DNA of 64,000 nt, from the NCBI RefSeq assembly GCF_003334315.1, contig NZ_QOWR01000015.1; one strand, written 5' to 3'. Shown one piece after another: positions 26,297 to 26,951 of the stretch. A program made the translations under genes and the position numbers. Numbering within the stretch: the first letter of the stretch is position 1; every line of letters starts with the position of its first letter. This stretch comes from Escherichia coli (GTDB lineage Bacteria > Pseudomonadota > Gammaproteobacteria > Enterobacterales > Enterobacteriaceae). Below the pieces are notes generated by a model. The model had not been told where the DNA came from and ran no database searches. It worked only from the letters and a program-made list of their open reading frames with translations.

Positions 26297-26704
26297 TTAT
26301 CTTTGCGTCTCTTGTTGCAACAAAATCCGCCGTAAATCCCGCCATTCAGCTTCGTCCATGCTGTCGGCTGCCAGCCATAAATGTTGCCGTTTACCGCCAT
26401 CAGAACGTAAACGCAGCATCATGCCGCTCTTAATCATCCACGGTGCTTTGACGATGCTCCACTCCTGCCCTTGCCAACGCAAACGCCCGTCCATCAACAA
26501 GCGAATTTCCCCCTGGCGAGCATTAATACGCCGCTGGCTGCGAACGCAATCAAACACCACCAGCGAAAGTAACACCATCCATAACGGGGTGTAACTGAGT
26601 GGCCAGGGCATGAGTAAAATAACAGCGGCAACCAGCCCATGAATCAGCAAGGAAAGCCACTGTGCGCGCCAGGAGACGCGCAAATCAGATTGCCACAGGA
26701 CCAC
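26297..26704 (-). CDS. cptA: Inner-membrane protein CptA (YgfX)
   Basis: 135-aa ORF with two hydrophobic segments; overlaps the sdhE 3' end by 20 nt. Confidence 0.85.
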
Positions 26705-26951
26705 GTTCCCGGTTCCGTGTCTGGATGAGTCGGACCATCATTTCCAGTTCTGCATCGGCCGGTTTACCGTGATTCATCAGCCAGTTAAACAGGTCCGGAT
26801 CGTCACATTCCAGCAGACGAATAAAGATGCGTTTTTCGTCATCGCTTAAGCTGTCGTACTCATGTTCGAAAAACGGCATGATTGAAATATCGAGTTCGCG
26901 CATACCACGGCGGCATGCCCAATGAATGCGGGCTTTGTTGTTAATGTCCAT
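26685..26951 (-). CDS. sdhE: FAD assembly factor SdhE (CptB/YgfY)
   Basis: 88-aa ORF with the conserved RGMRELD motif. Confidence 0.9.

Follow-up and report, generated by a model that had tools for sequence, protein, structure and literature searches.

Closest described systems

The genes sdhE (also named ygfY or cptB) and cptA (also named ygfX) form a two-gene operon that has been described in Escherichia coli, as b2897-b2896, and in Serratia sp. ATCC 39006, as sdhEygfX. The same operon, with no difference, is found within a stretch of 64,000 nucleotides of the E. coli contig NZ_QOWR01000015.1 (assembly GCF_003334315.1), here called the window, where the two coding sequences share 20 nucleotides in different reading frames. 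In Serratia the two genes are co-transcribed and YgfX interacts with SdhE (PMC5042078), and co-transcription has also been described for ygfY-ygfX in Shewanella (PMC8621075). Annotation and earlier studies already cover the operon, the overlap and both proteins, and the locus represents no new kind of system.

Amongst other two-gene systems, the type IV toxin-antitoxin pair CbtA/CbeA (YeeV/YeeU), which is found in cryptic prophages and is accessory, bears some likeness to sdhE-cptA in that both are operons in which the proposed antitoxin is encoded first. A further likeness lies in the inhibition of FtsZ and MreB that papers citing Masuda 2012 attribute to over-produced CptA. Unlike CbtA/CbeA, however, sdhE-cptA belongs to the core genome, being universal and present in one copy, and SdhE has a housekeeping role in the assembly of enzymes. 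The definition of a type IV system also fits poorly with the physical interaction between SdhE and YgfX.

The second group for comparison comprises the translationally coupled pairs with ATGA or TGATG junctions, such as trpB-trpA (Huber et al. 2019), in which the genes likewise run in the same direction on one mRNA and the second gene starts inside the open reading frame of the first. Such pairs typically overlap by 1 or 4 nucleotides and are tightly coupled, whereas sdhE-cptA has an overlap of 20 nucleotides, a GTG start and a measured translation ratio of about 1:17. An overlap of this length lies in the range of weak coupling in reporter systems (PMC12548453).

It is very probable that the locus in the window is the known chromosomal sdhE-ygfX (cptB-cptA) operon, with an ancient out-of-frame overlap and with cptA expressed at a low ratio to SdhE. 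The overlap does not imply 1:1 expression, given the approximately 17-fold gap in translation, nor does it imply a toxin-antitoxin system.

The overlap and its conservation

The list of open reading frames, the sequence itself and the RefSeq annotation generated by PGAP, which places both coding sequences at identical coordinates with the same 20-nucleotide overlap, agree with an earlier note on this DNA that had described sdhE and cptA as sharing 20 nucleotides in different frames (Table 1). The end of sdhE is read as ...CGG GAA CGT GGT CCT GTG GCA ATC TGA and the beginning of cptA as GTG GTC CTG TGG CAA TCT GAT. The two starts are 247 nucleotides apart (82x3+1), which puts cptA in the +1 frame with respect to sdhE, with its GTG falling within sdhE codons 83/84, 17 nucleotides ahead of the sdhE stop codon. 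Upstream of this GTG the cptA frame is open for 33 nucleotides only. The overlap is the longest of the seven co-directional overlaps annotated in the window, the others measuring 4, 1, 4, 8, 4 and 4 nucleotides.

Table 1. Coordinates of features at the sdhE-cptA locus, numbered from the first letter of the window
Feature	Position	Strand	Description	Basis
sdhE (ygfY/cptB) coding sequence	26685..26951	minus	88 amino acids; ATG start; TGA stop at 26687-26685	open reading frame list, RefSeq
cptA (ygfX) coding sequence	26297..26704	minus	135 amino acids; GTG start at 26704-26702	open reading frame list, RefSeq
Dual-coding overlap, GTGGTCCTGTGGCAATCTGA	26685..26704	minus	20 nucleotides; encodes the SdhE tail (R)GPVAI-stop and CptA M-V-L-W-Q-S-(D)	
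Putative embedded translation-initiation region of cptA, ACACGGAACCGGGAAC	26705..26720	minus	16 nucleotides ahead of the cptA GTG, within sdhE codons 78-83; conserved; weak Shine-Dalgarno-like GGA/GGGA motifs	
Shine-Dalgarno-like AGGAAG	26955..26960	minus	ahead of the sdhE ATG	sequence
Stable hairpin	26264..26293	minus	just past the cptA stop; -18.3 kcal/mol, z = -3.70, 0/200 shuffles as stable	

A 1.2-kb query around sdhE-cptA matches every one of the 5426 complete E. coli genomes searched, in many of them with 100% identity, and a search with the 60 nucleotides of the junction shows the locus to be single-copy in 5426/5426, with the junction at least 99% identical in 5047 of them.

Across the wider family one genome per species was scanned, giving 80 Enterobacteriaceae loci with 71-99% CptA identity. 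In all 80 species cptA has its GTG at the equivalent position, the overlap is 20 nucleotides long and ends with TGA, and only two positions of the overlap sequence vary amongst them. The junctions of 11 more distant lineages, with 27-59% CptA identity, were inspected one at a time, and nine keep an overlap, of 14-26 nucleotides. It is exactly 20 nucleotides in six of the 11 (one with an ATG start), 26 nucleotides in two, where the GTG lies two codons further upstream, and 14 nucleotides in one, where an ATG lies two codons downstream. The remaining two have no overlap, the genes being separated by spacers of 1 nucleotide (L082) and 30 nucleotides (L094), and a spacer of 37 bp has been described for ygfY-ygfX of Shewanella oneidensis (PMC8621075). 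The ygfZ / sdhE-ygfX / fldB-xerD synteny is kept in Enterobacterales relatives.

Synonymous sites were compared across 77 species by registering sdhE by codon and calculating the entropy of the third positions, the mean of which falls from 1.06 bits over codons 2-76 to 0.24 bits over codons 77-88. Codon 78 is where the fall sets in, about 16 nucleotides upstream of the GTG and hence outside the dual-coding stretch, with codons 78-82 giving 0.27, 0.00, 0.29, 0.34 and 0.44 bits. Synonymous variation is suppressed across about 36 nucleotides of sdhE throughout the family. On the other side of the junction, CptA homologues with as little as about 27% identity retain the N-terminal motif MVxWQxxLRxS, in which S11 hardly varies. 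As judged from these sequences, the overlap is real, beyond chance or a gene-calling artefact, because it is present in 80/80 species and in 9/11 distant lineages, because of the fall in synonymous variation and because the CptA N-terminus is conserved. The comparative data provide a clean example of dual-coding constraint.

A number of individual records deserve mention. The 1.2-kb region occurs in two copies in one E. coli genome, with one of the places on a plasmid-typed record, and in 1/5426 genomes the single place of the 60-nucleotide junction is on a 'plasmid' record, which may be a mis-assigned replicon. At 829-1507 of the Logan contigs L082/L083 (59% CptA identity) a shortened SdhE of 85 residues ending ...QQRKQ-TAA is followed by the 1-nucleotide spacer, with a AAAGGAAG Shine-Dalgarno sequence before the cptA GTG, and this junction looks like a natural 'uncoupled' variant. 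A record named 'Chryseobacterium sp. 18061' (L079; CACSKA010000005.1, 2501-2908, on a 420-kb contig) carries a typical Enterobacteriaceae sdhE-ygfX with 76% CptA identity and an identical junction, and the assembly is probably mislabelled or contaminated. In Enterobacter sp. EA-1 (L063; CP025776.1, upstream of 2501) translation of sdhE gives two stops and a garbled N-terminus in the 5' part, with the 3' part and cptA intact, which could reflect a frameshift, pseudogene formation or faulty assembly.

Expression ratio and initiation signals

Published data for E. coli (Burkhardt et al. 2017, eLife, supplementary file 1), in which the distance between the two open reading frames is tabulated as -19, give similar mRNA abundances for sdhE and ygfX, at 161.0 and 137.9. 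Ribosome density in the same file, a proxy for synthesis rate in one growth condition, is 254.2 for sdhE and 15.1 for ygfX, a difference of about 17-fold, and the translation efficiencies are 1.579 and 0.11. Given such a gap on similar amounts of mRNA, expression is therefore not stoichiometric. The earlier note had read stoichiometric co-expression from the overlap, and of this the shared mRNA stands whilst the equal output does not. The pair is like translationally coupled genes in having both open reading frames on one transcript, as the mRNA levels and the co-transcription in Serratia and Shewanella show, and in having the downstream start near the upstream stop, although with an overlap longer than the usual 1 or 4 nucleotides; it departs from them in that its output is not equimolar.

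The duplex that the region ahead of the cptA GTG could form with the anti-Shine-Dalgarno sequence is weak, at about -4.2 kcal/mol, and the values for the ten overlapping lineages that were scored range from +0.7 to -4.2. The two non-overlapping lineages reach -5.6 (AAAGGAAG) and -6.1 (GAGGG), a contrast with n=2 on that side, which suggests that overlapping lineages dispense with a Shine-Dalgarno sequence and non-overlapping ones have one, and that initiation depends on the arrangement of the genes. Translational coupling of cptA to sdhE is plausible because a GTG start with a weak Shine-Dalgarno sequence in the overlapping lineages is set against a stronger one in the two without overlap. The 5' leader of sdhE, for its part, is located in the divergent sdhE-ygfZ intergenic region, and conservation is higher over its final 16 or so nucleotides, next to the ATG, than over the remainder.

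In the mechanism proposed, a single mRNA carries sdhE and cptA, with sdhE translated efficiently from its ATG by means of the AGGAAG Shine-Dalgarno sequence. The 20-nucleotide overlap is old, Enterobacterales-wide and held by the constraints of both frames, the SdhE frame supplying a conserved RGPV tail and the CptA frame supplying the first beta-strand (V2-D7) of a PH-like domain predicted to be cytoplasmic, and the 16 nucleotides upstream of the GTG would act as an initiation region that is conserved though weak. Translation of cptA is low, at about 1/17 of the sdhE ribosome density in the published data, because of the GTG start and the poor Shine-Dalgarno sequence. Most initiation on cptA may then come from ribosomes that are just finishing sdhE, either through opening of the site or through termination 17 nucleotides downstream and backward re-initiation, and CptA synthesis would be tied to that of SdhE at a fixed low ratio and not at 1:1. 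CptA itself would be a low-abundance inner-membrane partner of SdhE, toxic if over-produced in E. coli but not a classical toxin.

Several points weigh against this account. Dual coding would by itself produce conservation within the overlap, and such conservation provides no proof of a regulatory role. The difference in Shine-Dalgarno strength depends on just two non-overlapping lineages, and the ribosome densities stand in for rates of synthesis in a single condition of growth. The junction has no significant RNA structure, the fold of 121 nucleotides giving z = -0.52 against shuffles. Reporter studies show, moreover, that the efficiency of coupling drops steeply as the overlap lengthens from 4 to 25 nucleotides, with little or none at 25 (PMC12548453); re-initiation across 17-20 nucleotides may thus be inefficient, a serious alternative being that cptA initiates independently at a low rate. 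A local hairpin around the GTG was also considered as a junction structure and was rejected, as it is not kept in the distant lineages.

A more specific version of the proposed mechanism can be put forward tentatively, and is on balance unlikely. Here the GTG with its poor Shine-Dalgarno sequence would combine with the conserved 16-nucleotide element as a conserved ratio-setting device, CptA would be made solely by ribosomes that scan backwards after terminating on sdhE, its amount throughout the Enterobacterales would be fixed at a few per cent of that of SdhE, and CptA would be a split PH-like inner-membrane receptor, and not a toxin, serving to place or titrate SdhE at the membrane beside succinate dehydrogenase and fumarate reductase. 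If true, the operon would represent a natural and evolutionarily stable case of backward re-initiation across a long overlap.

Alternative explanations of the overlap

The alternative that survives best, although it too is unlikely, regards the overlap as a frozen accident of start and stop drift, with no function in expression, with both protein termini constrained and with cptA initiating independently. The variation in overlap length (14, 20 and 26 nucleotides) fits with such drift, as does the absence of an overlap in L082 (+1 nucleotide), L094 (+30 nucleotides) and Shewanella (+37 bp), and it has been noted above that dual coding explains the conservation inside the overlap and that coupling over such a distance is poor in reporter studies (PMC12548453). 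What counts against a frozen accident is the conservation of synonymous sites in the 16 nucleotides upstream of the GTG, which are outside the dual-coding stretch, and the presence of a usable Shine-Dalgarno sequence in the two non-overlapping lineages when the overlapping ones have none.

It is improbable that the overlap is the tight coupling device of a toxin-antitoxin pair, delivering the antitoxin SdhE/CptB and the toxin CptA at about 1:1. The genes do overlap on a common mRNA, Pfam gives PF07254 the name 'Cpta_toxin', and CptA reportedly inhibits the polymerisation of FtsZ and MreB when over-produced. Over-production of E. coli CptA is toxic and is neutralised by CptB according to papers that cite Masuda 2012, and a CptA homologue from A. 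baumannii is toxic when expressed in E. coli (PMC8132199). A 1:1 output is nevertheless at odds with ribosome densities that are about 17-fold apart at similar mRNA levels, and long overlaps couple poorly in reporter studies (PMC12548453). In Serratia the Fineran group found the SdhE-YgfX interaction but no toxin-antitoxin phenotype. Nor was such a phenotype found in Shewanella, where a ygfY deletion strain is viable, a ygfYX double deletion leaves the defect unchanged with no rescue of growth, and neither deletion nor co-expression of ygfY and ygfX has toxin-antitoxin-like effects (PMC8621075).

The distribution of the locus also argues against a toxin-antitoxin pair, in that it is a single-copy, syntenic core locus, with one copy in 5426/5426 genomes and synteny across Enterobacterales, that is neither patchy nor mobile and has no match in PADLOC, and SdhE has a separate and well-established housekeeping role in flavinylation. 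The toxin-antitoxin label for sdhE-cptA is disputed, and in its genomic behaviour the locus resembles a housekeeping operon of the core genome, with its synteny kept. The likeness to toxin-antitoxin pairs that the earlier note had drawn from the overlap thus keeps some footing in the toxicity reported for E. coli, as relayed by citing papers, and loses it in Serratia and Shewanella and in the core character of the locus.

A further alternative, for which there is very little room, is that the annotated GTG is wrong and that CptA begins at the TTG of codon 8 (26683) or the ATG of codon 32 (26611), leaving no functional overlap. GTG is a non-canonical start with a weak Shine-Dalgarno sequence, gene callers often over-extend open reading frames, and some database entries are shorter, such as the 120-residue P0035. 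Against this, the homologous GTG is present in 80/80 species, residues 2-11 are conserved to about 27% identity with the near-invariant S11, and the Pfam match runs from residue 2. In the AlphaFold2 model residues 2-8 form a strand of the fold with a predicted local distance difference test (pLDDT) score of about 94, and a later start would delete this conserved structure. The Shine-Dalgarno energies of the downstream codons are no better (-2.2 kcal/mol for TTG-8 and +1.5 kcal/mol for ATG-32), and where the GTG has been lost the start lies two codons up- or downstream, still inside sdhE. The downstream start codons were rejected on conservation, profile and structure.

The least credible alternative, programmed +1 frameshifting near the sdhE stop to give an SdhE-CptA fusion of about 217 residues, draws on the +1 frame of cptA, open for 33 nucleotides upstream of the GTG, and on several database proteins of 207-217 residues with both PF03937 and PF07254, but it was rejected since those proteins are singletons with heterogeneous junctions (after G84, V86 or I88, far upstream, or at in-frame deletions), as from sporadic indels or assembly errors, and since the sequence lacks a slippery motif of the kind found in prfB (CUU-UGA-C), the P-site AUC before the UGA is unable to re-pair in the +1 frame (UCU) and no strong Shine-Dalgarno sequence lies upstream. 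Fusion open reading frames of 166-217 residues occur as singletons in metagenome and Logan assemblies (P0002, P0003, P0005, P0008-P0010, P0013 and P0022), and their differing junctions fit 1-nucleotide indels or deletions better than a programmed event. The prfB gene itself, at 21065-22163 of the window and about 4.5 kb away, is annotated as a joined coding sequence with a programmed +1 frameshift, and sdhE-cptA has no slippery site comparable to it.

The SdhE and CptA proteins

SdhE matches Pfam PF03937 (Sdh5) over residues 7-79 (E=5.8e-26) and the NCBIfam equivalog NF008130, for the flavin adenine dinucleotide (FAD) assembly factor SdhE, over its full length of 1-88, with a score of 198.4 bits that is above the curated cut-off of 120. 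It shares 100% identity with PDB 1X6I, and is likewise identical to 1X6J and the SdhE chains of 6C12 and 6B58. The RGxxE motif of the SdhE / Sdh5 / SDHAF2 family of flavinylation factors is present as R15-G16-M17-R18-E19, and the five-helix bundle of the family is that of the solved structures to which the protein is identical. On sequence grounds, then, the 88-residue product is SdhE, the FAD assembly factor for succinate dehydrogenase and fumarate reductase, and the profile matches and the identity to 1X6I bear out its earlier assignment as a flavinylation factor.

CptA matches Pfam PF07254 (DUF1434) with E=7.4e-50, residues 2-131 aligning with positions 1-132 of the 133 in the model. No NCBIfam model exists for CptA, and a sequence search of the PDB found no solved homologue, the matches being at chance level only. 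From an alignment of 37 diverse homologues AlphaFold2 gives a confident model, with a mean pLDDT of 94.8 and a predicted template modelling (pTM) score of 0.76. The model starts with a beta-strand at residues 2-8, which is followed by two long hydrophobic helices, at 12-31 and 36-62, that form a predicted transmembrane hairpin; six strands then occupy residues 65-112, and a helix at 118-134 ends the chain. The full-length profile match and the predicted two-helix hairpin are those of the CptA / YgfX family, and they agree with the previous description of cptA as a membrane protein.

The soluble part of CptA is predicted to adopt a PH-like fold that is split, in that its first beta-strand precedes the transmembrane hairpin, and the overlap-encoded residues V2-D7 belong to this first strand of the confidently modelled domain. 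When set beside the membrane-anchored bacterial proteins with PH-like domains, CptA differs in having no sequence match to the Pfam PH families, only to PF07254, in having its domain split by the hairpin and in having a structure that is predicted only. A putative complex, modelled by AlphaFold2 as a single chain of SdhE, linker and CptA with a paired alignment, has a pTM of 0.48, with the linker and the SdhE tail below a pLDDT of 50. The predicted fold, with its first strand encoded in the overlap, offers a modest lead on the role of YgfX with SdhE. What is added to the available literature is minor, namely the quantification of the dual-coding constraint, the shifts in start register that give overlaps of 14, 20 and 26 nucleotides and the predicted split PH-like fold.

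Other features of the region

The annotated neighbourhood comprises recJ-dsbC-xerD, fldB, ygfX-sdhE, ygfZ, trhA, yqfB and bglA. A simple scan found no sigma-70 consensus promoter and no promoter-like site inside sdhE, and two terminator-like matches inside cptA were discarded as being at chance level, with 2 found and 1.6 expected. Just past the operon, the stable hairpin of Table 1 occupies the 39-nucleotide gap between the convergent cptA and fldB genes and has no U-tract; it may represent a shared transcript 3'-end or terminator structure.

An Rfam scan of 24000-30000 gave nothing within the sdhE-cptA locus. In the ygfZ-trhA intergenic region the same database gives a match to naRNA4 (RF02564) at 28276-28353, with 75 bits on the plus strand and 47 bits on the minus strand, together with a weak match at 28161-28234. 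The stronger of these matches is read as a candidate palindromic repeat of the repetitive extragenic palindromic (REP) type.
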